This document shows positions 113-58,224 of a DNA stretch of 64,000 nt, one piece after another. The translations under genes were made by a program, and so were the position numbers. The DNA is taken from the IMG/VR virus record IMGVR_UViG_3300023174_003073, positions 1 to 64,000 of that record; one strand, 5' to 3'. Below the pieces are notes generated by a model. That model saw only the letters and a list, made by a program, of their open reading frames with translations. It was not told the DNA's origin and did no database searches. The stretch is from a virus. Positions within the stretch are counted from its first letter, which is position 1. Each line of letters begins with the position of its first letter.

Positions 113-187
113 CCGGCGTTAGTATAATGGATAATACAGCGGTCTTCTACACCGTGAATGTGGGTTCGATTCCTGCACGCCGGACCA
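113..187 (+). tRNA. tRNA-Arg(TCT)
   Basis: Acceptor CCGGCGT/ACGCCGG, anticodon loop CTTCTAC, T-loop TTCGATT, encoded CCA. Confidence 0.93.
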
Positions 188-188
188 A

Positions 189-767
189 TTACTTAATAAA
201 TAATTGCCAATCTTCCATACTATAATGATAGTTTTCTAATATATCTAGCATTTTGATAAAAACTATCATTGTCTTTTTATGACCGGCAAGTTCAGTTCGT
301 GTATGCGTGATTTTTCTCTCTACTATTGCTTGTAGAAAGTTTTCACCTTCTTTTTTCAATTTGATTTTTTTACTAACGATGTTTAATTTTCGTATAGTGT
401 TCTCGCATTCATTGATGGCACCAGTAGTGTTTCTCTGAGCCTCATATATGTCAAGTTTCATCTTTAATATTAAATCATCAAATTCTGGGTTTATCTGTAA
501 AGTATGATGCGATATCATATTAGCAAGTCTACCTAAAATTTCATTCTCAATGCCGGCTTCTTCATAATGTTCGCCGGTTGAATCATAGTGTGAACGTTTC
601 GTTGGATCACTTAGTATTTCATATGCTAACTTGATTTTTTTGAATTTCTCTTCGGATCCCCCTTTATCAGGGTGGTGTGTTTGGGCTAGTGTTCTATATT
701 TTTGTTTGATTTCATCAGGAGTGCATGTAGGTGACAATCCAAGTTCTTCATATAAGGTAGTATCCAT
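189..767 (-). CDS. J-domain (DnaJ-type) co-chaperone
   Basis: N-terminal LYEELGL...HHPDKGG...AYEILSD J-domain with HPD motif, followed by a helical C-terminus. Confidence 0.9.
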   Translation of the reverse strand: MDTTLYEELGLSPTCTPDEIKQKYRTLAQTHHPDKGGSEEKFKKIKLAYEILSDPTKRSHYDSTGEHYEEAGIENEILGRLANMISHHTLQINPEFDDLILKMKLDIYEAQRNTTGAINECENTIRKLNIVSKKIKLKKEGENFLQAIVERKITHTRTELAGHKKTMIVFIKMLDILENYHYSMEDWQLFIK

Positions 768-805
768 AACGTATTTATCGTGTTGTGTTTTTGCAACAAC
801 AACGG

Positions 806-939
806 TTTACAACAAATACGTTTGGTGTTATACTATCTTTAATGAGTTGAGAGATTGATTCAAAGGTAAGTTGAAGATTCTAAGTGACGTAGAAATACAA
901 CACAAAAGAATTGACGATAAATCTGTTTAGATGTATAAT
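806..939 (+). promoter_or_regulatory. Tandem sigma70-type promoters upstream of the ncRNA/tRNA block
   Basis: TTTACA(806)-17-TATACT(829) and TTGACG(911)-17-TATAAT(934), each followed by TTTAATGAGTTGAGA. Confidence 0.75.
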
Positions 940-963
940 ACATTTAATGAGTTGAGAAAGCAG

Positions 964-1200
964 GTTGTTTCAAACAGCAAGACACGCTAGCAATAGCAAA
1001 AAGTCAAGCAGGAAACATTAAATGAGTTTGTGACTCAGCCTAAACTACTCTGAGACCGCTGAGGAACAGTGGTATCACAAGGGACCCATGTCAACATGGG
1101 TCCTCAGAGTATAAAGCAGAGGGAGAAAGTTCCCCGAGGCTGGCAGTTGAAAAATTACTGCCAAATGATTAAACAACGCAGTCGATTGAGACTAGTTGTA
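964..1200 (+). ncRNA. Candidate multibranched structured ncRNA (unassigned)
   Basis: No credible ORF. Helices include TACTCTGAG/CTCAGAGTA, GGACCCATG/CATGGGTCC, CAGCCT/AGGCTG, GGCAGT/ACTGCC and GTTGTTT/AAACAAC. Confidence 0.55.
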
Positions 1201-1250
1201 ATGTTCGTTAAAATTTTAATTTTTCGTATAGCCCTGTTTAAGTTACAGGG

Positions 1251-1483
1251 ACTATATGAAAACACATTAGGGTTACCTAGTCCGTTAGGGGTGAACGAAG
1301 GTTGATACGAACCGGATACCCATGAAGCAGGAGGGTTCTAGAGTATGACGAGACACCATCGAGTCAAAGGGCAAGAACTATACCAAACTCCAGGGAGGCG
1401 ACGGAACAACTAGGCACGTAATGAGGTCTTGACGCAAGTTGGTGATGAGTGTCAAAAACTTCCCTAATGTATTTTCATATAGT
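1251..1483 (+). ncRNA. Long-stem ncRNA cassette A
   Basis: 22-bp closing stem ACTATATGAAAACACATTAGGG / CCCTAATGTATTTTCATATAGT (1 mismatch), with inner CCTAGT-CCGTT / GACGG-ACTAGG helix. Confidence 0.6.
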
Positions 1484-1485
1484 AG

Positions 1486-1568
1486 TTATATGTAAACATG
1501 CTTCAGCGGGATAGCCCGTGTTGGATAGTTTCTGTTTAGTACAGTATCCGAAGTGTGTTTTCATATAG
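1486..1568 (+). ncRNA. Long-stem ncRNA cassette B
   Basis: TTATATGTAAACATGCTTC / GAAGTGTGTTTTCATATAG stem enclosing two small hairpins. Confidence 0.55.
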
Positions 1569-1571
1569 TAT

Positions 1572-1646
1572 GCTCGGGTCGTCTATCGGTTAGGACACAT
1601 GCCTTTCACGTATGTAAGAGGGGTTCGATTCCCCTTCCGAGTACCA
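1572..1646 (+). tRNA. tRNA-Glu(TTC)
   Basis: Cloverleaf, loop CTTTCAC, TTCGATT, ACCA end. Confidence 0.95.
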
Positions 1647-1651
1647 AATAT

Positions 1652-1730
1652 GCACCGCTAGCTCAGTCTGGCCTAAGGCGCCGCCCTGTCACGGCGGAGA
1701 TCACGGGTTCGAATCCCGTGCGGTGCGCCA
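1652..1730 (+). tRNA. tRNA-Asp(GTC)
   Basis: GCACCGC/GCGGTGC acceptor, loop CTGTCAC, GCCA end. Confidence 0.95.
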
Positions 1731-1735
1731 AATAT

Positions 1736-1827
1736 GTTGAGTTGGATGAGTGGTTTAAATCAACACCCTGCTAAGGTGTCGCCTGTAGTAATATGGGCCG
1801 TGGGTTCAAATCCCACACTCAACGCCA
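1736..1827 (+). tRNA. tRNA-Ser(GCT)
   Basis: Long variable arm, loop CTGCTAA, G discriminator plus CCA. Confidence 0.95.
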
Positions 1828-1842
1828 GAGTTAAATAAAGTT

Positions 1843-2358
1843 ATGAAAGAATTTTACGATACAAAAGATTTTCCCTTTGTCAAAGAGTTTGAAAACAATT
1901 GGGAAAAGATATACAATGAATGTAAGAACATTCAGCCTTGGATGATTAATTGGCCAATGAACGCACAAGACAATACTAATTGGAATGTGTTTGGATTGTA
2001 TTCTTGGCCTGACGGTAATCCAGTAGAATTACATTGCAGTGCGTGTCCATTCACTGCTAATTTGATAAATTCAGTTGTACCTAATCATAGGACAGCATCG
2101 TTTTCAAAACTGAAAGCAAATTCAGTTATCAAGCCTCATGTGGGTTACAACGGTGATGTATTAAGAATGCATTTAGGATTGTATATACCTGAAGGTGATT
2201 GTGCAATTAAAGTAGGTAACAGTACTTTTAATTGGAAGAACGGAGAAGCATTAGTATTTGATGACAGACTAATGCATGAGACTTGGAACAACACAAATGA
2301 AGATAGATTAGTTTTTATCATTGACTTTGTACCTGACTTCAAGTTAGAATCTCTATAA
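1843..2358 (+). CDS. Aspartyl/asparaginyl beta-hydroxylase family 2OG-Fe(II) oxygenase
   Basis: IKPHVG...LRMHLGLYIP...FDDRLMHETWN..RLVFIID motifs. Confidence 0.88.
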   Translation: MKEFYDTKDFPFVKEFENNWEKIYNECKNIQPWMINWPMNAQDNTNWNVFGLYSWPDGNPVELHCSACPFTANLINSVVPNHRTASFSKLKANSVIKPHVGYNGDVLRMHLGLYIPEGDCAIKVGNSTFNWKNGEALVFDDRLMHETWNNTNEDRLVFIIDFVPDFKLESL

Positions 2359-2362
2359 GAAC

Positions 2363-2547
2363 GTTCTAGCGTCACTAGATACTCTGACCCGGAGGATGAG
2401 AAGTACAATGACATGTACGGGTGGTACACTTTAAACCGAAAGTGCGTTAGCAATACGATAACGGTCCCTGTCGGGAAGCGGGTGGAGGGTGCATGTGATG
2501 ACTCCAAAGGTTTGATGCACTATAATTACCGCCGAGGGATGCAGAGC
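2363..2547 (+). ncRNA. Candidate ~185-nt structured ncRNA (unassigned)
   Basis: Closing helices GTTCT/AGAGC and GCGTC/GATGC. Inner helices GTACA/TGTAC, CACTTT/AAAGTG, GTGCAT/ATGCAC. GC-rich relative to the genome. Confidence 0.5.
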
Positions 2548-2555
2548 ATTTATAT

Positions 2556-2633
2556 GTCTCGGTACCAGAGTGATTTAATGGCTCCGCCTGCAAAGCGGCT
2601 GATTCGTAGGTTTGAATCCTACCCGAGACTCCA
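2556..2633 (+). tRNA. tRNA-Cys(GCA)
   Basis: GTCTCGG/CCGAGAC acceptor, loop CTGCAAA, U discriminator plus CCA. Confidence 0.92.
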
Positions 2634-2653
2634 AGTTTTTAAAGGAGAACATT

Positions 2654-2782
2654 GTGGCGCACAAGCAACAAGGTATTCTAACACGTAGTCCTCAATGGTG
2701 GAAACACCTTAGAGATTGGAAGCGAGTGTTCTGGAAATCAGAACGACAAGCACAAAAGAGAAATTTTAACAAAGGTGAATGA
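2654..2782 (+). CDS. Small basic hypothetical protein (42 aa, not in the ORF track)
   Basis: AAGGAG RBS, GTG start, MAHKQQGILTRSPQWWKHLRDWKRVFWKSERQAQKRNFNKGE. Confidence 0.6.
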   Translation: MAHKQQGILTRSPQWWKHLRDWKRVFWKSERQAQKRNFNKGE

Positions 2783-2870
2783 CATGAAACGTAGTAAACG
2801 TTAGTGTCATCTTTAGACTTCCATGTATGGTCTAGGGATGGCACGTAAAAGAAAATCTAATACGTACTAT

Positions 2871-2945
2871 CCCTTCGAGGTGTTATGGTAGCATACTCGG
2901 CTCTTACCCGATGAGGCGTCAGTTCGACTCTGACTGAAGGGACCA
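2871..2945 (+). tRNA. Atypical tRNA, anticodon CTT (Lys)
   Basis: CCCTTCG/TGAAGGG acceptor, loop CTCTTAC, TTCGACT, ACCA. It has A at position 8 and a mismatch at the top of the anticodon stem. Confidence 0.8.
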
Positions 2946-2951
2946 ATTCAT

Positions 2952-3027
2952 GGAAGCATAACTCAATGGCTAGAGTACCCGGCTTTTAACCGGATAGTTG
3001 TGGGTTCGAGTCCCACTGCTTCTACCA
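2952..3027 (+). tRNA. tRNA-Lys(TTT)
   Basis: Loop CTTTTAA, TTCGAGT, ACCA. Confidence 0.95.
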
Positions 3028-3110
3028 TATAAAAACACATTGAATACTAACTGCGACATCCATCGAAAGGTTAGTAGAAGTCTTGCAAGCCAGTGTGTTT
3101 CTATATGGTA
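3023..3110 (+). ncRNA. Long-stem ncRNA cassette C
   Basis: 20-bp stem TACCATATAAAAACACATTG / CAGTGTGTTTCTATATGGTA, inner TACTAAC/GTTAGTA. Confidence 0.6.
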
Positions 3111-3191
3111 GTTATATAAAAACATATTTGACTAAACTCGGGTTCATCCGTGATAGCAATTGCTACTATATCAAATGTGTTTCTATATGGT
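3111..3191 (+). ncRNA. Long-stem ncRNA cassette D
   Basis: GTTATATAAAAACATATTTGA / TCAAATGTGTTTCTATATGGT stem with two inner hairpins. Confidence 0.55.
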
Positions 3192-3199
3192 AAAAATTT

Positions 3200-3285
3200 G
3201 GAGGTGTAGGAAAATTGGTAACCCCAGTGGACTGTAAATCCGCCGCCCCTGTGCATTGTTGGTTCGACCCCAGCCACCTCCACCA
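3200..3285 (+). tRNA. tRNA-Tyr(GTA)
   Basis: GGAGGTG/CACCTCC, loop CTGTAAA, long variable arm, ACCA. Confidence 0.94.
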
Positions 3286-3288
3286 AGT

Positions 3289-3505
3289 TTTGTAAGTGTT
3301 AGCAAGTGAAATCACGCTATTCAGTATTCTTCGAAGGTTCTGTATAGTAGAAGGTTGCGGGTTCGATGCCCGACTGGTCGCTTGAGTGGGACCGGTATAC
3401 ATGATGGCGTATCAGCTGGATGAATCCCAAGTAACGTACCGACTACTGTCCGGACTTGTATAATCAGTTGAATGGTGCTAATAATGTGGTAGCACTACTT
3501 ACAAA
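3289..3505 (+). ncRNA. Candidate ~215-nt structured ncRNA with a T-arm-like hairpin
   Basis: Closing TTTGTAAGT/ACTTACAAA, plus CGGG-TTCGATG-CCCG, ACTGGTC/GACCGGT and GGTGCTA/TAGCACT. Confidence 0.5.
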
Positions 3506-3558
3506 TTAAATAAATTATTCGCAAAAAGTATAAATACAGTGTTAATGAGGAAAATCTA

Positions 3559-3951
3559 ATGTATAAATTTTTACACAGCTATTATCATCCTGAAGGACAT
3601 CCTATAGCAAGAATATTAAATTCATATGAAATTAAATTTTGGGAATTTTTGCAAAATTGCTGGAATATTCCAGGATTAGAACCTGTAATAGAGTTCTTTA
3701 GAAGTGAAGATTACACCACTGAAGCTATTACATGGAGTTGGGAAACTAAAGAAAAATATGATGAATGGATTACAGTAGCCGGTAGCAAATGGAGTTCTGC
3801 ACTAGTACTTGGTGAAATTTACAGCGACTCGGTTGGAGTAACGCAAACTCATAATCTTCCTGATTATAATGTAGAGCCAGCAGCCGATATGATAGCAACA
3901 ACAGTTGAAGATGTAATGTTGGATTATGGTAAATCTCAAATTACTCAGTAA
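3559..3951 (+). CDS. Hypothetical protein
   Basis: 130-aa ORF, GAGG RBS, TATAAATA late-promoter motif upstream. Confidence 0.75.
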   Translation: MYKFLHSYYHPEGHPIARILNSYEIKFWEFLQNCWNIPGLEPVIEFFRSEDYTTEAITWSWETKEKYDEWITVAGSKWSSALVLGEIYSDSVGVTQTHNLPDYNVEPAADMIATTVEDVMLDYGKSQITQ

Positions 3952-4514
3952 TCTATTATATATTCTTTAAAAATTAATTTAGCAGTACCCATTGGAATTA
4001 TATTACCATCAAAGTCATGTAGTACCATAGTCAATGATCTTCTTATACCACCAAACGTAATCATTTGATGGGGGATCCCTACTTGAATTAAACTAGGTAA
4101 TCCGATTTTATTAGAATATATTTTCTCTAATTTGTAACGTTCAAATACTGTATATTTTCTTATAACATTTTCGGGTGCATCACTGTTTTCCATGATATCA
4201 GCATCTACTGGTATGTTTGCTTTGTAATTATACCAAGACATTTCGTGATGCTCTCCCCATACCCAAATTAATTTTGACATATCACCAGTACCATGCAAAT
4301 CTGAATGGATTGGTCCTGGTTGATACGCATCCCCGTATACATCATAAAAACTAGAAATTGTAGTAATGACAATGCCCTTAGTTTTTAAAAAATCTAATAA
4401 TTTTGGTTCGATAAATTCTACAGGAATTAAATTCCAACCTTCTTTTGGTAAGTCATCCATAGGAATTTTTAATGGGTTTAAATCTAATTTTAAGTTAATG
4501 CATAAATCATTCAT
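3945..4514 (-). CDS. Hypothetical protein, possible cupin/2OG oxygenase fold
   Basis: IHSD...IPHQ gives an HxD..H pattern; TAAATA upstream. Confidence 0.6.
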   Translation of the reverse strand: MNDLCINLKLDLNPLKIPMDDLPKEGWNLIPVEFIEPKLLDFLKTKGIVITTISSFYDVYGDAYQPGPIHSDLHGTGDMSKLIWVWGEHHEMSWYNYKANIPVDADIMENSDAPENVIRKYTVFERYKLEKIYSNKIGLPSLIQVGIPHQMITFGGIRRSLTMVLHDFDGNIIPMGTAKLIFKEYIIDY

Positions 4515-4552
4515 ATAATATTACCTATAGCAATATTTATTATAAGTAAAAG

Positions 4553-5092
4553 ATGTTTAATAAAGATAGTTTCAGTAACGGACAAATTGATAGCAAGTTA
4601 TGGCTATGCCGAGAACTAGAGAATTTAGGTTGGACGTCTGACCTAACACATATCTATGGTGGTTGGTATGGCGTACTTGCTTTTTTGTTATTAACTAGAG
4701 AGAAATTTGTTGTCAATCGTATTAATAGTTTTGACATTGATCCAGAATGTGAATCAATAGCAGATATGATTAATAATAACTATGTTTTCAAAGAATGGAA
4801 GTTTAAAGCACATACCAGTGATTGCAATACTATGATTAGCAATGCAGATTTGATTATCAACACATCCAGCGAACATTTTGAAACAATGGATTGGTTTGAT
4901 AATATTAAATCAGGAACAAGAGTTATCATACAAGGTAATGACATGGATCACGATGACCATGTTGTTCATAGTGATACACTAGAAAAATTTATAAAGCAGT
5001 ATCCATTAAGTGAAATTGCATATCAAGGTGAGTTAGAATTCATTTACCCTGATTGGAACTTTCATAGATATATGCTTATTGGTAAAAAATAA
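4553..5092 (+). CDS. Putative class I SAM-dependent methyltransferase-like protein
   Basis: HIYGGWYG glycine loop, SFDIDP, DLIINTSSEH. Confidence 0.65.
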   Translation: MFNKDSFSNGQIDSKLWLCRELENLGWTSDLTHIYGGWYGVLAFLLLTREKFVVNRINSFDIDPECESIADMINNNYVFKEWKFKAHTSDCNTMISNADLIINTSSEHFETMDWFDNIKSGTRVIIQGNDMDHDDHVVHSDTLEKFIKQYPLSEIAYQGELEFIYPDWNFHRYMLIGKK

Positions 5093-5093
5093 T

Positions 5094-5167
5094 GTCTTGG
5101 TGGTGTAATGGCAGCATAGCGGTCTCCAAAACCGTTTGTGGGGGTTCGAGTCCCTCCCGGGACGCCA
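5094..5167 (+). tRNA. tRNA-Trp(CCA)
   Basis: Loop CTCCAAA, TTCGAGT, GCCA. Confidence 0.94.
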
Positions 5168-5168
5168 A

Positions 5169-5375
5169 TTATAAGTTATTGAATTCAGGTCCTGCTAGAA
5201 TGAAAGGTTTTTCTTCTAGTATAACGTCATTGACGTATTCTTGTTTCACTATTTGAAACAATGGATTCAAAACAAATTCATTAGGAAGTACCCAAGACAG
5301 TTTAGGATCGTAAGGATCTTTACTAAATGTTTGATATAAAACTTCTACTGTCTGGCGTTGCTCAAATGGAATCAT
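5169..5375 (-). CDS. Hypothetical protein
   Basis: 68-aa ORF filling an inter-tRNA gap, TAAATA upstream. Confidence 0.6.
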   Translation of the reverse strand: MIPFEQRQTVEVLYQTFSKDPYDPKLSWVLPNEFVLNPLFQIVKQEYVNDVILEEKPFILAGPEFNNL

Positions 5376-5390
5376 ACAGTATTTATTAAT

Positions 5391-5483
5391 GCCCCTGTAG
5401 TTTAACGGTTAAAACGGCGGATTTATATCCCGTAAGCAACAGATAATTGGTTCATGTGAGTTCGATTCTCGCCGGGGGTACCA
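5391..5483 (+). tRNA. Atypical tRNA, anticodon TAT (Ile), long variable region
   Basis: GCCCCTG/CGGGGGT acceptor, GCGGA-TTTATAT-CCCGT, ~22-nt variable region, TTCGATT, ACCA. Confidence 0.75.
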
Positions 5484-5526
5484 AATAGTTTGACAACATA
5501 TAGTAAATGCTATATACTATGTATAT

Positions 5527-5601
5527 GCGGTGTTAGCTCAGTGGTAGAGCAGGGCCCTCATAAGACCTTGGTCGTTGGATCGTTCCCAACACACCGCACC
5601 A
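5527..5601 (+). tRNA. tRNA with CAT anticodon (elongator Met or Ile2)
   Basis: GCGGTGT/ACACCGC, loop CTCATAA, atypical T-loop ATCGTTC, ACCA. Confidence 0.88.
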
Positions 5602-5612
5602 AATTTTATATT

Positions 5613-6029
5613 ATGGACTTATCAAAAGAAGATGCCGACAAACGTAATAGTTTACCTTATCCAATGGAACTAGGTAGCCCTGCTTTTGCACCTGTCGATG
5701 TTTTTAAAGAAAAGGACATAATACACAATGCTGGCAAACTTCATGCTCAACAAGAGTATGATAGAATCATGGAACAAGTTGAAGTTCTAAAGCGTCAGGC
5801 TGATAGTTTGGCACATAGAATGAAAATAAGTGACATGATGTATAATATCAGTATTACCTTTAAGCCTGTACATGGTAAGATTTATTATGTATACTTAGAC
5901 ACAATTAAGAATGTTCATTGGGTGTCAATGAATCATCCTAACAGTTGGTCAGCACTAGGTATACATCATAAATTTGCAGTTGCTGTTCAACTAATGGGTG
6001 ACAGTAATTGGCAAGAAGTTGAGTTATAA
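5613..6029 (+). CDS. DUF2452-like protein
   Basis: Start moved to MDLSKE, after the tRNA. LPYP..LGSPAF, a coiled coil, FKPVHGKIYYVY and D..W resemble DUF2452. Confidence 0.65.
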   Translation: MDLSKEDADKRNSLPYPMELGSPAFAPVDVFKEKDIIHNAGKLHAQQEYDRIMEQVEVLKRQADSLAHRMKISDMMYNISITFKPVHGKIYYVYLDTIKNVHWVSMNHPNSWSALGIHHKFAVAVQLMGDSNWQEVEL

Positions 6030-6188
6030 AGAACGAATGAAGTAAATTGCTGATTCGGTATCAGTAAAGTATTTCATTCTGATTGAGAAAGTGTAAATAT
6101 CATGTACGATGATGTAACAGGTGGAATCGTTACTCATTGAAAGATGGATGAACAATCCTGAATCAGTGATAGCATCGTAAGTGTGCAT
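6024..6188 (-). CDS. Small hypothetical protein (54 aa)
   Basis: MHTYDAITDSG... start outside the tRNA, ATAAATAC upstream. Confidence 0.55.
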   Translation of the reverse strand: MHTYDAITDSGLFIHLSMSNDSTCYIIVHDIYTFSIRMKYFTDTESAIYFIRSL

Positions 6189-6200
6189 AAAAGTATTTAT

Positions 6201-6274
6201 GCGGGGTTCGTATAGTGGTAATACCTTAGCCTTCCAAGCTAATGCTGAGAGTTCGATTCTCTTACCCCGCTCCA
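6201..6274 (+). tRNA. tRNA-Gly(TCC)
   Basis: GCGGGGT/ACCCCGC, loop CTTCCAA, TCCA. Confidence 0.95.
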
Positions 6275-6293
6275 GATTATTAATAGAGCAAAC

Positions 6294-7853
6294 ATGCAAA
6301 CAATTATTTTTTCAGATGTACTTGCTCCTGGTTATGGTAAAAGCGCAGGTGCATATAGAATTGCATCAGAGTTACGGTCAAACGGGTTTACATGTCAAGT
6401 AGTTGATTTTTTCGCACATCTTTCTATTAATCAAATTTATTCAATTATAGATACTTTAGCAACCAGCGATACATTGTGGGTAGGATTTTCTACTACGTTT
6501 TTCTTTACACTGGATGAAAGTATTGACGCACAAAATCAATCACCTGATGAAAGAAACGAAAAGATATTTTTTGATAAAGTACCGTATCCTATAGTTGATA
6601 TGAAAACTGGTTATCCGTTCAGTGCTTCTATTATGAAGGATATATTTCGTTATATTAGAAGTAAAAGTTCAACAATAAAAATTGTTATAGGCGGCGGTAG
6701 AAGTCAACAGGCAGCTTTTCATGATGGGTCTATACTTAACAAAGTATGGGGAGATTATTATGTACATGGTTTTGCCGATGAATCTGTTACTGTATTGACT
6801 AAGTGGTTAATAGATAAATCAAATCCAGAACCAAAATTTTCCGGATTTTATAACAATTTCATTGATTCAAACAAAGAATATGATTATCAAGAATTTAACA
6901 AATCAAGCCTTCATTTTCAAAAAAATGATGTAATTGGTTCTACTGAATTCATCCCGATTGAAATCGCTAGGGGATGTATTTTTAAATGTAAATTTTGTTG
7001 TTTTCCATTATTAGGAAAAAAACGCGGAGATTACACTAAGACAAAAGAAACTTTGCAAGAAGAATTCATACGAAACTATGAAAATTTTGGTACAACCAAT
7101 TACATGTTTATGGATGAGACCATAAACGATTCAATGGAAAAAGTAGAATTCTTGTATGATGTTATATCAACTTTGCCCTTTAAGATTAAGTGGGGAGGAT
7201 ATCAACGTTTAGACTTGTATTATACAAATTCGGAAATGCCTTCAATTATTCAGGAAATAGGATGTGAACAAATTATTTTTGGAGTTGAAACATTAAACAA
7301 GAAAACCGGTGAAGTTGTGGGTAAAGGAATGCATCCGGACAAAGTAAAAGAGTTACTTAAAAAATTAAAAAATCAATGGAAAGATAACATTCAACTTTCT
7401 TCCGGTTTTATTATTGGGTTACCTTATGAAACTAAAGAATCATTAAAGGATCTTGAAACATATCTTCTATCTGATGATTGTGGTTTAGATTCTTGGTCAT
7501 TGTATCCTTTTATGATAGTTGAAGGAATGGATACAATGATAAGTTCTAATCCATCACAGTATGGATATAAAATAATTGATACTGACTATGGAACAGAATG
7601 GGAAAACGATTACATGACCTTTACAGAGGCACATCAAATCACAACTGAAATCAGAAAAAATACCATGCATAAATGCAAAGTTAATGGATGGGTACAGATG
7701 AGATTACGAAATGTCGGATACACTAAGGACGAACTAAATCGTATGACAATCTTTGACTATCACAATAATATGAGTGAAATACATAGCCGACTAACATTAA
7801 AGAAAGAAAATTACTTTAACATTTTAATGGGAAACAAAGAGATTGACAATTAA
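6294..7853 (+). CDS. B12-binding-domain radical SAM protein
   Basis: IEIARGCIFKCKFC (CxxxCxxC), FMDETIND, FGVET, FIIGLPYET; N-terminal B12-binding-like region (VGFST, IVIGG). Confidence 0.9.
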   Translation: MQTIIFSDVLAPGYGKSAGAYRIASELRSNGFTCQVVDFFAHLSINQIYSIIDTLATSDTLWVGFSTTFFFTLDESIDAQNQSPDERNEKIFFDKVPYPIVDMKTGYPFSASIMKDIFRYIRSKSSTIKIVIGGGRSQQAAFHDGSILNKVWGDYYVHGFADESVTVLTKWLIDKSNPEPKFSGFYNNFIDSNKEYDYQEFNKSSLHFQKNDVIGSTEFIPIEIARGCIFKCKFCCFPLLGKKRGDYTKTKETLQEEFIRNYENFGTTNYMFMDETINDSMEKVEFLYDVISTLPFKIKWGGYQRLDLYYTNSEMPSIIQEIGCEQIIFGVETLNKKTGEVVGKGMHPDKVKELLKKLKNQWKDNIQLSSGFIIGLPYETKESLKDLETYLLSDDCGLDSWSLYPFMIVEGMDTMISSNPSQYGYKIIDTDYGTEWENDYMTFTEAHQITTEIRKNTMHKCKVNGWVQMRLRNVGYTKDELNRMTIFDYHNNMSEIHSRLTLKKENYFNILMGNKEIDN

Positions 7854-7883
7854 TGATACATAGTATATAATATACTTTGTTTT

Positions 7884-7968
7884 GCGAGTGTGACGGAATA
7901 GGTAGACGTAACAGACTTAAAATCTGTCGCTTTAGGGCGTCCCGGTTCGATTCCGGGCACTCGCACCA
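7884..7968 (+). tRNA. tRNA-Leu(TAA)
   Basis: Loop CTTAAAA, long variable arm, ACCA. Confidence 0.95.
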
Positions 7969-7973
7969 GATAT

Positions 7974-8002
7974 GCCCTGGTGGTGGAATTGGTAGACACG
8001 CT
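7974..8002 (+). pseudogene. Truncated tRNA-Leu (5' acceptor strand and D-arm only)
   Basis: GCCCTGGTGGTGGAATTGGTAGACACGCT matches a Leu tRNA 5' third and stops before the anticodon. Confidence 0.7.
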
Positions 8003-8030
8003 TTTTTGTGTGTCTAGCATAAATAGATAT

Positions 8031-8480
8031 ATGAAACACATTGAAGAATATATTACATTATCAAAGGCAGACCGACAGCAACATCTTAAATTAGATGAAG
8101 CCTGCATTGAAAGAGGAGCTGGCAGTTATTATTTCAAAGGATTGTTAGCACATTTATTAGATACAACAGTGCCAACAGGACATAAGATACACTTGTGTCA
8201 TGCTTGTCATAATGGTCAGTGCGGTAATCCTAATCATTTGTATTGGGGCACTGCTCAGGAAAATAGACAGGATCAAGTAACAAATGGTGGAAAAACTATT
8301 TGGGAAAGAACAGTAGAAAAACATGGTTTAGAAGAAGCCTACAAAATGCAAACTAAAGGCAACAAAAGTGCAGGTGGTAAAGCAAATAAAGGTAAACCTA
8401 AATCAGAAGAACATAAGAGAAAAATTGCCGCTAACCATAAAGGTGGGCGACAAAAGAAAGTTAATGCGGACGTGACGTAA
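8031..8480 (+). mobile_element. Free-standing HNH (His-Cys/Zn-binding loop) homing endonuclease with NUMOD3-like tail
   Basis: LCHACHNGQCGNPNHLYWGTAQEN motif; C-terminal KPKSEEHKRKIA; CATAAATA promoter motif upstream. Confidence 0.85.
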
Positions 8481-8550
8481 TTGGTAGCCGTACCAGTCTT
8501 AGAAGCTGGCGCCGAGAGGTGTGTGAGTTCGAGTCTCACCGTCCGCACCA
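8466..8550 (+). tRNA. tRNA-Leu(TAG)
   Basis: GCGGACG/CGTCCGC, loop CTTAGAA, variable arm, ACCA. Confidence 0.94.
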
Positions 8551-8560
8551 AAGTTTTAAT

Positions 8561-8636
8561 GGGGGATTAGCTCAGTTGGGAGAGCGGCTGGTTTGCAACC
8601 AGTAGGTCGCAGGTTCGATCCCTGTATCCTCCACCA
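8561..8636 (+). tRNA. tRNA-Ala(TGC)
   Basis: GGGGGAT/ATCCTCC with G3:U70, loop TTTGCAA. Confidence 0.95.
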
Positions 8637-8670
8637 AGAATCATAAATATAGTATGTCGAGGAACATGCT

Positions 8671-8853
8671 ATGCAATTGAAAGTTTATATCAACAACAAA
8701 CTATACAAAACTGTCACAGTACAAGGTGAAAGTTATGATCCAGGATTCATTTGGCCTGAATTGCAAGCCGATAGAGATTCTGGGTTACTTGTAGGATTTG
8801 ATTTAACCAAGGGAATCAACATTCGTTACGAAAAAGTAACAAACAAGAAGTAA
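8671..8853 (+). CDS. Hypothetical protein
   Basis: 60 aa, GAGG RBS, CATAAATA upstream. Confidence 0.65.
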   Translation: MQLKVYINNKLYKTVTVQGESYDPGFIWPELQADRDSGLLVGFDLTKGINIRYEKVTNKK

Positions 8854-8855
8854 CC

Positions 8856-8930
8856 GCTTGATTAGCACAGTGGAAGTGCGCTTGCTCGACATGCAAGAGG
8901 TCAAAAGTTCAAATCTTTTATCAAGCACCA
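8856..8930 (+). tRNA. tRNA-Val(GAC)
   Basis: GCTTGAT/ATCAAGC, loop TCGACAT (C33), ACCA. Confidence 0.88.
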
Positions 8931-8951
8931 ACTAATCACAAATAAATATGT

Positions 8952-9026
8952 CGCGGGGTGGAGAAGTAGTATCTCATTAGTCTCATAAGCTAAAGATCGG
9001 CGGTGCGATTCCGTCCCCTGCAACCA
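8952..9026 (+). tRNA. Initiator-like tRNA-Met(CAT)
   Basis: CGCGGGG 5' end with C1:A72 mismatch, loop CTCATAA. Confidence 0.88.
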
Positions 9027-9041
9027 ACAACAATCATTCAA

Positions 9042-9281
9042 ATGCTAGAATATTTTATAACCTTTTTTGCTGTATTTTTTACTGATATCTTTTATACTTA
9101 CTACTTGAAGGCAGTACAAGAAGAACAGGTAATGAAAGCCAGTTTATGGGCAGTGGTAGTATTCATAATTGCTTGTATAGCAGTTATAAATTACACTACT
9201 AACTATTGGTTACTTATTCCAGCAGGCATAGGTGCATTTTGTGGCACATATGTTGGGATGATTTTAAGAAAGAAAGAATAA
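9042..9281 (+). CDS. Small membrane protein (3 TM)
   Basis: Hydrophobic segments, GAFCGTYVG. Confidence 0.75.
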   Translation: MLEYFITFFAVFFTDIFYTYYLKAVQEEQVMKASLWAVVVFIIACIAVINYTTNYWLLIPAGIGAFCGTYVGMILRKKE

Positions 9282-9358
9282 CGGAGTGTAGCGCAGTCTG
9301 GTAGCGCACCTGGTTTGGGACCAGGGGGTCCAAGGTTCGAATCCTTGTACTCCGACCA
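9282..9358 (+). tRNA. tRNA-Pro(TGG)
   Basis: CGGAGTG start, loop TTTGGGA, ACCA. Confidence 0.95.
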
Positions 9359-9377
9359 ATTTTATAGAAAGAAACTA

Positions 9378-9650
9378 ATGCAAGTAAGAGCAAAACATAT
9401 TTTAGTAGAATCACTCAGTGATGCAATGGATCTATACATCAAAGTTAAAAACAATGGTGAAGATTTCAGCACACTAGCACAGACATACAGCAAGTGTCCA
9501 AGCGGTCGTAATGGCGGAGACTTAGGAACGTTTGATCGTGGGCAAATGGTTAAACCATTTGAAGATGCTACATTTGGTTTAGAAGTAGGTGGCTTAAGTC
9601 AACCTGTTCAAACTCAGTTTGGTTATCACTTGATTCAAAGGACTGCATAA
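9378..9650 (+). CDS. ppiC: Parvulin-type peptidyl-prolyl cis-trans isomerase
   Basis: RAKHILV...SKCPSGRNGGDLGTF..GQMVKPFE..VQTQFGYHLI. Confidence 0.93.
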   Translation: MQVRAKHILVESLSDAMDLYIKVKNNGEDFSTLAQTYSKCPSGRNGGDLGTFDRGQMVKPFEDATFGLEVGGLSQPVQTQFGYHLIQRTA

Positions 9651-9817
9651 TGACTTGTAGAGGATATGATCCAAAAGCTGTTAAGGTCTCTAAAACAGTA
9701 AAACGTGCGGCAGCATTGATTATGGATAGTCATCAACGTGGCGCTTTTATTCGTAGTTTTGCTAAAATCGAACAAGCTAACAGTCGTTCAGCAGGACGAG
9801 TTAAAGAAGAAAAGTAA
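9650..9817 (+). CDS. Small basic hypothetical protein (55 aa, not in the ORF track)
   Basis: MTCRGYDPKAVKVSKTVKR..., coupled to both neighbours by TAATG overlaps. Confidence 0.65.
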   Translation: MTCRGYDPKAVKVSKTVKRAAALIMDSHQRGAFIRSFAKIEQANSRSAGRVKEEK

Positions 9818-10425
9818 TGCCATATATCAAAGAAGTTTTTGATGTAACAACATTTGAACACGCTAAACACGTTGTTCTTACCAGTGACCCAGACAACCCA
9901 AACAAGTTTGAGAATGAAACAAACTTTTTGATTAATACAATTGCGGAACAAAATATTATACTGAAGGATTCAGTTGTATTAGATTTTGGTTGTGGTATGG
10001 GTCGTGTTAGTAAAAAACTGATTGAGAAATTTGATTGTAATGTCATTGGTGTTGATATAAGCAATACTATGCTTACATTTGCTAATATCTATGTGTCTAA
10101 GCCAAAGAAGTTCAAACCATTGAATTCATATAATATGGCAAATACTATAGATGTTGCTATCAGCACTTTTGTATTACAACATGTAGAGAATCCAAAGACT
10201 GAGATAGATATCATTTACAATAATCTTAAAGTAGGTGGTTATCTAATATTAGTGAATGAGAACAAGAGATATGTACCAAGTGACGTTGATAGTAATCGTT
10301 ATATAGTTTGGAACGATGATGGCTTTGATGTTTTTGGCGAATTAGATAGTAGACTTAACAGAATAAATAGTGTAAAATACATGTCAACAGACACAGACAT
10401 TATCTTTTATAGGAGAGAAGTATGA
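9817..10425 (+). CDS. Class I SAM-dependent methyltransferase
   Basis: VLDFGCGMGR, GVDIS..ML, FVLQHV, LKVGG. Confidence 0.9.
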   Translation: MPYIKEVFDVTTFEHAKHVVLTSDPDNPNKFENETNFLINTIAEQNIILKDSVVLDFGCGMGRVSKKLIEKFDCNVIGVDISNTMLTFANIYVSKPKKFKPLNSYNMANTIDVAISTFVLQHVENPKTEIDIIYNNLKVGGYLILVNENKRYVPSDVDSNRYIVWNDDGFDVFGELDSRLNRINSVKYMSTDTDIIFYRREV

Positions 10426-10610
10426 GTGGAAAAGGAAGTAAACCTCGCCCATTTAGCATATCTCAACAAGAGTACGATACTCGGTGGGATGCTATATTTC
10501 AGCGTGATATTAAAGAAGAAATGAAAGACGAGAAGGCTCCAGTGCTAGAAAACAATCAGAGTAAAGAATCTGATAAAGTTTCTAGTTCTGGCGGAACAAT
10601 TAATATATGA
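10422..10610 (+). CDS. Hypothetical phage protein
   Basis: MSGKGSKPRP...WDAIF, ATGA overlap. Confidence 0.7.
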   Translation: MSGKGSKPRPFSISQQEYDTRWDAIFQRDIKEEMKDEKAPVLENNQSKESDKVSSSGGTINI

Positions 10611-10616
10611 TAATAT

Positions 10617-10692
10617 GCATCCTTAGCTCAGTTGGTAGAGCGTCGCCTTTACACGGCGAATGTCGGCGGTTCGAGCCCGTCAGGATGTACCA
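10617..10692 (+). tRNA. tRNA-Val(TAC)
   Basis: Loop TTTACAC, TTCGAGC, ACCA. Confidence 0.95.
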
Positions 10693-10707
10693 GTTACTAA
10701 ATAGAAC

Positions 10708-11274
10708 ATGTTTACTAAATTAAATATCAATCATAATTTTTCCCTACAAAGTTCGAGAAAACTTAAATTTCAATTTGGAAAAGTGATTGATGATGCTTGG
10801 CGTGGAATTTCATACTACGAAGCAGATATAGAAATGGATACCAAGATAAAAAAATATATTCCTGAAAAATATAGAAATTACTTTGATGTTACTATGATGA
10901 TTATTTCAGGACCTTATATTCCACCGCATATCGATGATGGCACTTTGGTAACCATGAATTTTTATATGGAAACAAGTAATGCATGTACATATTTTCATCA
11001 AGTAAAAGACAATATTACACCTACTATTAAAACGCTGCCTTCACAAAAGACAACCGGTAAATTTTTTGCAATTGAAGATTTAGAAACTGTTAGTCAATTT
11101 ACAGCGAATCGTGGAGAAGTTTATTTACTAGATGTTAGTAAAATACATAGTGTGAGTGTAGAAAACTCACCAGACAGAGAAGCATATTGTTTACAAACCA
11201 ATGAGCTTACATACACACAGGTATTAGAAATTTTAGCTGAGAGAGAATTCTCTCAATCAGATAAGCGGGATTAA
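10708..11274 (+). CDS. Putative 2OG-Fe(II) oxygenase/cupin-fold protein
   Basis: PPHID (HxD)...LLDVSKIHSV. Confidence 0.65.
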   Translation: MFTKLNINHNFSLQSSRKLKFQFGKVIDDAWRGISYYEADIEMDTKIKKYIPEKYRNYFDVTMMIISGPYIPPHIDDGTLVTMNFYMETSNACTYFHQVKDNITPTIKTLPSQKTTGKFFAIEDLETVSQFTANRGEVYLLDVSKIHSVSVENSPDREAYCLQTNELTYTQVLEILAEREFSQSDKRD

Positions 11275-11339
11275 TTCAGTGGTAGAATGTTTCGTTGCCA
11301 ACGAAAATGTCATCGGTTCGAATCCGATATCCCGCTCCA
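11265..11339 (+). tRNA. tRNA-Gly(GCC)
   Basis: GCGGGAT/ATCCCGC, loop TTGCCAA, TCCA. Confidence 0.94.
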
Positions 11340-11356
11340 AATAACCTAAGGATGAT

Positions 11357-11569
11357 ATGCCAAGACAAACAAGTGAAGCCGCAGTAAACGCTGTAGGTAA
11401 TAGATACGATTTAATTCTTATAGCAAGTCAACGTGTTAGAGAATTAACGGCAGGTCATCGCCCTAAATTAACAACAGCTAATGGTCATTCAGTTACCGCA
11501 TTGCGTGAGATTGAAGAAGGACTAATCAACCGTGAATATCTAAAACGAATCAAAAAGGTTGAGCGTTGA
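11357..11569 (+). CDS. rpoZ: RNA polymerase omega subunit
   Basis: VGNRYDLILIASQRVREL...VTALREIEEGLI. Confidence 0.92.
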   Translation: MPRQTSEAAVNAVGNRYDLILIASQRVRELTAGHRPKLTTANGHSVTALREIEEGLINREYLKRIKKVER

Positions 11570-12075
11570 ATCTACAGCCAGACTATACACTAGACAAATA
11601 TCTTAGCCAAGAAGAAGTTGAGATGTTTCATAAGAGTGGTGAGCATTATGATTTGTTAAGCACCTTTTCTAAGCAATTCAATAAAGTTAAAATTTACGAT
11701 ATTGGAACTTATAAAGGTCTTAGTGCCATTGCACTGTCAAGTAATCAAAGTAATTTAGTTGTTAGTTATGATATAGGTTACTATGTAACAGTTAAACAAC
11801 CCTACAATGTAGAGTTTCGTATAGGTAGTTTTTACCATGATAGAGAAATGTTAAGTAGTCCATTAATCATGTTTGACATTGATCCACATGATGGAATACA
11901 AGAAAAGAAGTTTGTAGAGAATTTAACTAATGTGGGTTACAAAGGTACTGTTATCTTTGATGACATACATTTGAATGATGGAATGAAAGACTTCTGGAAT
12001 TCTATCACACAAGAGAAACATGACTATACCCAGCACGGGCATTGGTCTGGTACCGGCATAGTTATATTCAAATAA
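11566..12075 (+). CDS. Methyltransferase-like protein (Methyltransf_24-like)
   Basis: DIGTYKGLSA, FDIDPH, VIFDDIH, GTGI. Confidence 0.75.
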   Translation: MNLQPDYTLDKYLSQEEVEMFHKSGEHYDLLSTFSKQFNKVKIYDIGTYKGLSAIALSSNQSNLVVSYDIGYYVTVKQPYNVEFRIGSFYHDREMLSSPLIMFDIDPHDGIQEKKFVENLTNVGYKGTVIFDDIHLNDGMKDFWNSITQEKHDYTQHGHWSGTGIVIFK

Positions 12076-12165
12076 GGAAGTGTGTCCGAGCGGTTTAAGG
12101 AACTGGTCTTGAAAACCAGCGATGTTTTACGATATCCGTGAGTTCGAATCTCACCGCTTCCGCCA
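12076..12165 (+). tRNA. tRNA-Ser(TGA)
   Basis: GGAAGTG/CGCTTCC, loop CTTGAAA, long variable arm, GCCA. Confidence 0.95.
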
Positions 12166-56331: not shown

Positions 56332-58224
56332 TTAAACAGTCTCTGCTGACTCTTTAACTTCTGCATCAACCACATCTTCAGGTTGTGATTGTTTCTTTTC
56401 AGCTTCCTCAGCATCATGTTTAGCTTTAGTGATTGGACTAATCGCCTCATACAATTTAGGAATGCTTTCTTGGATGACTGTTGGATCATCACCTTTAATT
56501 GCTTCTTCAACTGCTTTGATTGCTTCCTCAGCCTTAGTTTTTTCTTCTAGTGTAACTTTGTCACTATACTTGTCAAAGTCTTGTTTGAATCCATTTAGTG
56601 TAGATTCTGCACCATTACGTGCTTCAATCAATTCACGGGCTTTCTTATCAGACTCAGCATTCAACTCAGCATCTTTAACCATTTGTTGAATCTCGGCTTC
56701 TGATAAACCGCTATTTGACTTAATAGTGATTTTGTTTTCCTTACCAGTGCCTTTGTCTTTAGCACCGATGTGCATAATACCATTAGCATCAATATCAAAT
56801 GTAACTTCAATTTGTGGCACGCCTTTTGGTGCTGGTGGAATTCCATCTAAGTTGAAATCACCTAGCAACTTGTTGTACTGTGCAATCTCACGCTCACCTT
56901 GGTATACTTTGATAGTAACTGCTTGTTGATTGTTTTCTGCTGTACTGAAAGTTTGACTTTGTTTAGTAGGAATAGTTGTATTCTTTTGAATCAACTTACT
57001 CATTACACCACCTAGTGTTTCGATACCAAGACTTAGTGGAGTAACATCAAGCAATAGAACGTCAGTACGTCCACCACCTAAAACATCACCTTGAATTGCG
57101 GCACCAGCAGCCACTGCTTCGTCTGGGTTAACATCCTTGCGAGGTGCTTTACCAAAGAACTTCTCAACAGCCTCTTGTACTTTAGGCATACGTGTCATAC
57201 CGCCAACAAGAATAACCTCGTCAATATCACTGTTACTTACTTTGGCATCTTGCATTGCAACTTTACAAGGTGCAATACTACGTTGAATCAATTCGTCAAC
57301 TAAACTTTCTAACTTAGCACGTGACAATTTGACATTCATATGCTTAGGACCACTAGCGTCTGCTGTTACGTATGGCAAGTTAACATCTGTTTGTGCTGAA
57401 CTTGATAATTCAATCTTAGCTTTTTCTGCGGCTTCTTTCAATCGTTGTAGTGCTAACACATCTTTACTTAAATCAACTCCTGAATCTTTCTTAAATTCAT
57501 CAATTAAGAAATCCATGATGCGTTGGTCAAAGTCTTCACCACCTAAGAATGTATCACCGTTTGTTGACAATACTTCAACTTGTGTGTCACCATCAACGTT
57601 GGCAATCTCAATGATTGATACGTCAAATGTACCACCACCTAAGTCATAGACAGCAACTTTACGGTCACGCTTTTCCTGTTTATCCACACCATACGCTAAT
57701 GCGGCTGCTGTGGGTTCGTTAATGATACGCAACACTTCCAAGCCTGCGATTTTACCTGCATCTTTGGTTGCTTGTCTTTGACTATCATTAAAATAAGCGG
57801 GAACAGTAATAACTGCTTGTGTAACTTCATGACCTAGATAATCTTCCGCAGTCTTTTTCATCTTGCGTAAGACTTCGGCTGAAATCTGTGGGGGTGCTAA
57901 CTTATTATCGTTTACTTGAACCCATGCATCACCGTTGTCATTTTCAACGATGGTATATGGCATCAAGTCTATATCTTTTTGTACAGCCTCTTCTTTGAAT
58001 TTACGGCCAATCAGTCGCTTTGCGGCATAGATTGTATTCTTTGGATTAGTAACTGCTTGACGTTTAGCACTTGCACCTACAAGAATCTCATCATTGGCAT
58101 AGGCAATGATTGAGGGTGTAGTTCTAGCACCTTCGCTGTTTTCAATTACTTTGGGGATTCCGTTTTCAATGACGGCTACACATGAATTTGTGGTACCTAG
58201 GTCGATACCGATTACTTTGCTCAT
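56332..58224 (-). CDS. dnaK: Chaperone DnaK (Hsp70)
   Basis: [35 protein letters not shown]-terminal DVVDAEV. Confidence 0.98.

Follow-up and report, generated by a model that had tools for sequence, protein, structure and literature searches.

Clamp-stem cassettes with variable inserts in the tRNA arrays of uncultured phages

Four clamped elements in a phage tRNA array

The stretch of DNA analyzed here (the window) comprises the first 64 kb of a 171-kb viral contig from IMG/VR, IMGVR_UViG_3300023174_003073, with a GC content of 37%. Because the contig is estimated to be 43% complete, the source phage is very large. Within positions 113-12165 there are 21 tRNA genes, on the + strand without exception, and among them lie four elements, A to D, each closed by a stem of 19-22 bp that we refer to as a clamp. 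In element A (1251-1483, +), positions 1251-1272 (AUAUGAAAAC..) pair with 1462-1483 (..GUAUUUUCAUAU) around an insert at 1273-1461. Element B (1486-1570, +) has an insert made of two small hairpins. The arms of A and B are of the G-type, whereas C (3022-3111, +) and D (3112-3192, +) have A-type clamps around inserts of 48 and 39 nt, with U.G pairs at the base of D. Each stem contains one mismatch. It is U.U in B, A.C in C, and A.C also in D at stem position 6; A is paired at that position and has a C.A mismatch further in.

The elements form two tandems, with B preceded by A and D preceded by C, and A itself is preceded by a small hairpin. The 5′ arm of C opens within U72-A73-CCA of tRNA-Lys(UUU) (2952-3027, +), so that the 3′ end of this tRNA (U72 A73 C C A76) is the base of the clamp, and the last nucleotide of the tRNA, 3027, is the first A of ATAT. 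That this arm includes the CCA end had been noted in the original prediction, which was made from the sequence alone, and is confirmed. On the other side, tRNA-Glu (1572-1646, +) starts 1 nt after B and tRNA-Tyr (3200-3285, +) starts 7 nt after D. The prediction that each pair sits directly before a tRNA therefore holds in this window. It does not hold as a rule in the family described below, where the rule is instead that an element starts on a tRNA CCA.

In an inverted-repeat search the arms of A (22 nt) are 95% complementary and those of C (21 nt) 90%. Minimum free energy (MFE) folding gives four separate hairpins, with z = -3.8 for 1245-1575 and z = -5.8 for 3020-3200 relative to dinucleotide shuffles, and no shuffle reached as good a fold as either region. 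The arm motif is matched seven times in the window against 1.4 expected, a count equalled in 0 of 100 shuffles. Across the whole 171-kb contig the motif marks only A to D, plus two singletons with one mismatch. The four long-stem elements with related, mismatched stems are thus real, with slightly corrected coordinates, and they lie far beyond the chance level of shuffled sequence against which the original prediction had proposed to set them. The inserts of A to D (~189, 45, 48 and 39 nt) are mutually unrelated and fall in different clusters, in line with the description of the interiors in that prediction, and the two junction strings that it gave for the tandem pairs are both present, at 1472-1496 and 3098-3122.

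A family of clamps that pairs as RNA

The same stem recurs widely in related phages. A hairpin pattern, defined as both arms with 35-65 nt between them, was matched in at least 119 viral loci of IMG/VR, and an exact scan located the tandem junction at 8 loci. Once only real stems were retained, the family comprises at least 153 elements in at least 107 uncultured viral contigs, of which at least 132 are unique. The family consensus runs from (C)UACC-AUAUAAAAACACAUU through the insert to AGUGUGUUUCUAUAU-GGUA. Its stem (CCAUAUAAAAACACAUU / AGUGUGUUUCUAUAUGG) is recognized in B, C and D by a covariance model and in A by the arm pattern, and the G-type arms used by A and B (AUAUGUAAAC / GUUUUCAUAU) are a minority form. 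The covariance model, R1, was built from 60 copies (57 from other contigs plus B, C and D themselves) and scores C at 66 bits, D at 55 bits (44 with filters off) and B at 45 bits, with E values of 1e-8 to 1e-14; the long insert of A makes the model miss this element. Such a model, searched against phage contigs, had been suggested along with the prediction as a measure of copy number and insert diversity. It retrieves additional, more divergent copies from these arrays, so that a locus can have as many as 4-5. At least 95 unrelated insert clusters are found among the at least 132 unique copies. Copy number per genome is low. Five complete carrier genomes (160-364 kb) contain only 1-4 copies each, clustered in the tRNA array.

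At one related locus (L109; related loci are designated by L and G numbers), a second element after 7711 in tRNA-sense coordinates has divergent arms (AUAUUGAAGUAUAC.. / ..GUAUUUCAAUAU) in which pairing is kept by several compensatory changes. Arm variants therefore exist that the search pattern misses.

Outside uncultured phages the clamp is essentially lacking. A BLAST search of 50,697 GenBank phage records gave no match in cultured phages. The hairpin pattern applied to 596 Gb of prokaryote genomes gave one true member in 120 among the matches listed, the rest being almost all chance AT-rich hairpins. This sole member is on a 1478-nt contig that was binned into a 'Ca. Planktophila' metagenome-assembled genome and looks mis-binned, and the clamp is in none of 120 other genomes of the 'Ca. 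Planktophila' family. Mimicry of a host element was rejected on these grounds. In Rfam 15, only tRNAs in the window reach the gathering score and nothing overlaps A to D at E values up to 10, so that the scan of the interiors proposed with the prediction returned no family; A-type variants in four other loci have no Rfam match either. The literature searched contains no description of a clamp element, with incomplete coverage that leaves novelty unproven. A search for relatives through the neighbouring hydroxylase protein produced no loci. A to D are members of a large RNA family that is seen only in phages and is apparently undescribed, and the family appears to be restricted to uncultured phages.

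The clamp stem pairs as RNA, on the tRNA strand. The detector is strand-symmetric and each element was oriented by its nearest tRNA; all oriented elements lie on the same strand as that tRNA. Across the 60 aligned sequences, the core stem columns contain 65 G.U/U.G pairs and only 3 A.C/C.A, the signature of selection for pairing in the sense RNA. Stem position 6, after AUAUR, is A.C in 106 copies, A-U in 28 and U.U in 14, and the mirror-image G.U does not occur. The covariance model likewise scores the + strand above the - strand (for B, 45 against 20 bits). Conservation of the arms is partly forced by the search pattern, but the columns in which covariation was assessed, 11/90 and 22/79, were free of it. 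Column pair 11/90 is AU in 54 sequences, GC in 5, GU in 1 and unpaired in none, and the unconstrained pair 22/79 shows six pair types. Overall, covariation exceeds that of all 500 shuffles and of all slid controls.

The inserts range from 25 to 223 nt (median 45) and have a GC content of 49% in genomes with 37% GC. They turn over rapidly relative to their surroundings. The site after tRNA-Lys(UUU) holds unrelated inserts in the window, in L010/L015 and in G001 while the arms are unchanged, and L089 and L109 have unrelated inserts between flanks that are 96% identical on both sides. Among tRNA-Lys pairs that are at least 90% identical, only 4% have an insert in common. The D insert is ~95% conserved in L010/L015, despite visible differences between the neighbouring tRNA-Lys genes, and a related insert is found in L040. 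The B-type insert lies between A and tRNA-Glu in the window and between tRNA-Gln and tRNA-Lys in L141; its family, also found in L081, L102, L126 and L129, occurs with either arm type and folds into a pair of hairpins in which three base pairs show compensatory change. The ~190-nt A insert is conserved, with shared motifs, across eight contigs (the window, L009, L016, L041, L050, L080, L099 and L140), and the A-type inserts of related contigs carry the same clamp; a MAFFT/RNAalifold alignment of this insert was too divergent to yield an interior structure. Some inserts are clearly conserved structured RNAs.

The concept of a constant handle with a variable payload, put forward in the original prediction for four elements, is therefore strongly supported and general. 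The prediction was also right that this is not a CRISPR array, as the arms are reverse complements and not direct repeats. Its suggestion of guide-like RNAs finds no support, since complementarity of the A to D inserts to the phage's own 171 kb is not above that of shuffled controls. Of its other suggestions, RNase III-type processing and protein-binding decoys are possible.

Register with tRNA ends and possible routes of release

A tRNA lies upstream of 101 of the 153 elements, tRNA-Lys(UUU) in 63 cases and tRNA-Gln(UUG) in 18, and in 93 of 94 unique cases the stem opens on A76 of this tRNA. Of the 71 tRNAs downstream, 39 begin immediately after the AUAU of the stem, and a further four, all tRNA-His, do so with an extra G-1 (43 of 71). 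In the flush cases the acceptor stem of the next tRNA begins with the GGUA to which UACC on the upstream side is paired. The UAU that ends the stem is also the generic leader of 1446 other tRNAs in the carrier phages (U-1 in 76%, A-2 in 60%, U-3 in 54%), a consensus with which the tRNA-Glu leader in the window (..AGUAU|G) agrees. This exact register, the most informative feature of the family and one that the original prediction did not include, suggests that the enzymes of normal tRNA processing release the element: RNase P downstream together with CCA-end maturation upstream would alone free a hairpin with almost flush ends.

In the window and the related loci, U72 is present in most phage tRNA-Lys(UUU) and tRNA-Gln(UUG) compared with 23% of other tRNAs, with G1.U72 in ~76% of tRNA-Lys(UUU) and U1.U72 in most tRNA-Gln(UUG). 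Co-adaptation of tRNA position 72 with the clamp was rejected, because tRNA-Lys and tRNA-Gln have U72 equally often whether or not a clamp was detected next to them.

The reading that we favor, and that we judge to be evenly balanced between right and wrong, is that the cassettes are spacers which the usual processing of tRNA ends cuts out as small RNAs with clamped ends, and that their inserts are exchanged via recombination in the arms. A cassette would be transcribed along with the tRNAs of a phage tRNA operon, and its two constant arms would form a helix of ~17-21 bp whose base pairs UACCA of the preceding tRNA or module with GGUA on the downstream side. Enzymes that act on tRNA ends would then excise a discrete hairpin with nearly flush ends, the helix spanning A76 to, often, position -1. 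RNase P would cut the 3′ side and endo- or exonucleolytic 3′ trimming would produce the 5′ side, possibly assisted by host RNase III within the stem. As read from the sequence, an RNase P cut at the 5′ end of tRNA-Tyr would set the 3′ side of the C-D unit. The clamp may insulate the folding of tRNA and insert from each other and shield the insert from exonucleases, and the mismatch that follows the outer AUAUA helix may allow breathing through which processing enzymes reach the tRNA ends. The inserts would be many different small RNAs, exchanged as cassettes by recombination in the constant arms.

Several observations weigh against release by tRNA end-processing. Tandems such as C-D and A-B contain no internal tRNA and hence could not be separated by RNase P alone, and in 28 of 71 cases the downstream tRNA does not abut the stem exactly. 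The inserts fold barely better than shuffles (mean z = -0.33, p = 7e-4), and consequently many may be loosely structured or non-functional. Conservation of the arm sequence beyond the need of pairing or generic processing hints at a sequence-specific binder. Finally, what the A.C/U.U mismatch would do is conjectural, and in 18% of copies that position is an ordinary A-U pair.

Part of this evidence would be accommodated if the stems were mainly host RNase III sites that cut the tRNA precursor apart and the inserts were tolerated loops of little function, which we consider unlikely. Stems of ~20-22 bp have the classic minimal length of an RNase III substrate, and those of 19-23 bp that are backed by covariation reach the helix length of about two turns. 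Within a polycistronic unit they lie between stable RNAs, tandem cassettes without a tRNA between them need another endonuclease, and the folding of the inserts only marginally exceeds that of shuffles. Yet RNase III is weakly sequence-specific, while the arms are near-constant across phages whose tRNAs have drifted to ~70% identity (~94% for the arms, a figure inflated by ascertainment through the search pattern, against 74% for the adjacent tRNA-Lys). The enzyme also does not require the exact A76/G1 register, insert families are conserved with compensatory changes and recur in different contexts, and a search of 10 carrier contigs, five of them complete genomes, revealed no RNase III gene. 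Sequence conservation of the arms beyond pairing, with a fixed non-Watson-Crick position, would rather suit a stem and mismatch that are the handle for a specific RNA-binding protein, with the insert as decoy, aptamer or tether, and the high insert turnover would suit an arms-race role; this, too, we hold to be distinctly improbable. A phage candidate for the binder is a 475-aa DUF2828+DUF7788 protein (phrog_850, annotated 'RNA-binding protein', possibly Ro-like) encoded at 14913-16340 (+), 11 kb downstream of the cassettes, and nine other loci have DUF2828 homologues a few kb or less from cassettes. Like Y RNAs and YrlA with Ro (Rsr), the cassettes have a long terminal stem with a conserved irregularity that could act as a protein handle, a variable module and paralogues side by side, and related tRNA arrays contain Rfam YrlA matches below threshold (L050:7145-7258, 43.7 bits, E 1.5e-6; L016:4472-4583, 28.9 bits), in the case of L050 in a record that also has a DUF2828 gene. 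Against this, a DUF2828 homologue is present in only one of six carrier genomes at least 90% complete, and 702 records of cultured phages, all without the clamp, encode homologues with 44-47% identity. The protein has no sequence relative in the PDB, and the TROVE domain (PF05731) is absent from the five contigs examined. Elements A to D match neither RF02553 nor RF00019, even at E = 10, and B to D lack a tRNA-like domain; a link to Ro and Y RNAs was rejected for these reasons. There is also no universal neighbour open reading frame (ORF) family, the most frequent being found in 22 of 126 loci, so that a handle would be possible only with a host protein or an unrecognized phage protein. As RNase III, TROVE and also RtcB are absent from the carrier contigs examined, processing would rely on host enzymes.

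Terminal inverted repeats around a variable center, cassette-like replacement with one insert at different sites, and HNH endonuclease genes near 16 loci could instead suggest features of the DNA, such as mobile palindromes of the MITE (miniature inverted-repeat transposable element) or Correia type, recombination hot spots or invertible segments, for which transcription is incidental. We regard this as very unlikely, given that orientation is strictly tied to the tRNA strand and that the wobble asymmetry is 65 to 3. MITE- or Correia-like palindromes were rejected because the flanks have no consistent target-site duplication, complete genomes have 1-4 copies that are all in the tRNA array, and interiors differ between copies, unlike those of MITE families. 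In all 60 pairs of related inserts the two members have the same orientation relative to the tRNAs, with none inverted, so an invertible switch can be ruled out. Ribozymes whose self-cleavage would mature the 3′ end of the neighbouring tRNA are the least credible explanation and hardly to be expected here. Elements begin exactly at a tRNA 3′ end, a context reported for theta (HDV-like) ribozymes, which adjoin phage tRNAs and were proposed to act in tRNA maturation (PMC10879173). Theta ribozymes have a conserved catalytic fold, whereas in the 60-sequence clamp alignment only the helix is constant, interiors are unrelated and there is no conserved unpaired core, and no Rfam ribozyme family matches at E values up to 10.

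Going beyond release by tRNA end-processing, the cassettes might be a modular expression platform, an RNA counterpart of the integron, in which a protein-recognized stem would display, stabilize and exchange hypervariable small RNAs for conflicts between phage and host or among phages. We think it improbable that this extension is correct. The inserts would act as decoys, aptamers or inhibitors of defense nucleases, tRNA-directed or other. tRNA-Lys(UUU) and tRNA-Gln(UUG) are attacked by known anticodon nucleases, and docking on these two tRNAs would not be accidental if the platform were real. Since T4, small RNAs have been known from phage tRNA clusters, and they still await explanation; the clamp family gives a handle on them, with an easily searchable constant stem, an exact processing register and ~100 natural inserts. 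If the inserts serve host takeover or counter-defense, they would be a large untapped catalogue of functional RNAs. Even otherwise, the clamp would be a naturally evolved means by which a tRNA operon can release stable RNAs with protected ends, and it could serve as an expression scaffold.

Known systems and the surrounding sequence

By analogy, the cassettes would seem to work most like the processing and stability stems of stable-RNA operons and the spacer-derived RNAs of tRNA operons. RNase III stems flank 16S and 23S in rRNA operons and are also found at phage T7 early-RNA sites. As in these, a helix of ~20 bp, positioned between tRNAs, is formed from both sides of a stable RNA in a polycistronic transcript. 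Clamps differ in a helix that is near-constant in more than 100 phages, a conserved A.C/U.U mismatch, the A76/G1 register and small interchangeable inserts. T4 species 1 and 2 (rnaC, rnaD) and T5 RNA1/RNA2 are single, tRNA-shaped RNAs in tRNA gene clusters that share no clamp. Like the cassettes they are small non-tRNA RNAs among phage tRNA genes, presumably freed by the tRNA-processing machinery, whereas in the clamp family one constant stem serves ~100 different inserts. The cassettes can also be likened to the E. coli spacer RNAs 3′ETS-leuZ and the internal transcribed spacer (ITS) of metZWV, functional by-products of RNase E/P processing that are cut from tRNA precursor spacers. These are single-stranded base-pairing sponges without a conserved closing helix or cassette exchange. 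In the TMERs of murine gammaherpesvirus 68, a tRNA or tRNA-like gene is followed by one or two hairpins that are freed by tRNA 3′-end processing, a layout that resembles the C-D and A-B tandems. TMERs, unlike clamps, are eukaryotic, feed their hairpins to Dicer, and have neither a constant stem sequence nor a downstream tRNA.

Upstream of element A, a sigma-70-like promoter (TTGACG-N17-TATAAT, 911-957, +) can be read from the sequence, with a weaker copy at 806-852, and this putative promoter probably drives a transcript with A, B and the tRNAs that follow. The two promoter-like repeats are in tandem (both +) and each is followed by TTTAATGAGTTGAGA, of which a third copy lies near 1017. About 250 nt of non-coding, structured-looking sequence separate the promoter-like repeats from A. 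After tRNA-Tyr, at 3293-3502 (+), there is an RNA-like stretch of ~210 nt inside a different long stem. It holds a T-arm-like hairpin (GGGTTCGATGCCC), is conserved in L010 and G001, and has no Rfam match.

The tRNA arrays contain further genes and RNAs. Recurrent neighbours of the cassettes, each in at most 22 of 126 loci, are a Metallophos phosphoesterase, an RNAP-omega-like protein, a PF04308 RNase H-like protein, a cytidine/dCMP-type deaminase, HNH endonucleases and a dual-specificity phosphatase. The small ORF with an RNA polymerase omega/Rpb6 domain (PF01192) is at 11357-11569 (+) in the window and in 19 related loci. The tRNA array of one related phage has a group I intron (RF00028) at L140:6439-6638, with 57.5 bits, above the gathering score. 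Finally, the window encodes a full-length DnaK/Hsp70 homologue and a DnaJ-domain protein, at 56332-58224 (-) and 189-767 (-), respectively, the former ~70% identical to regions of bacterial DnaK.

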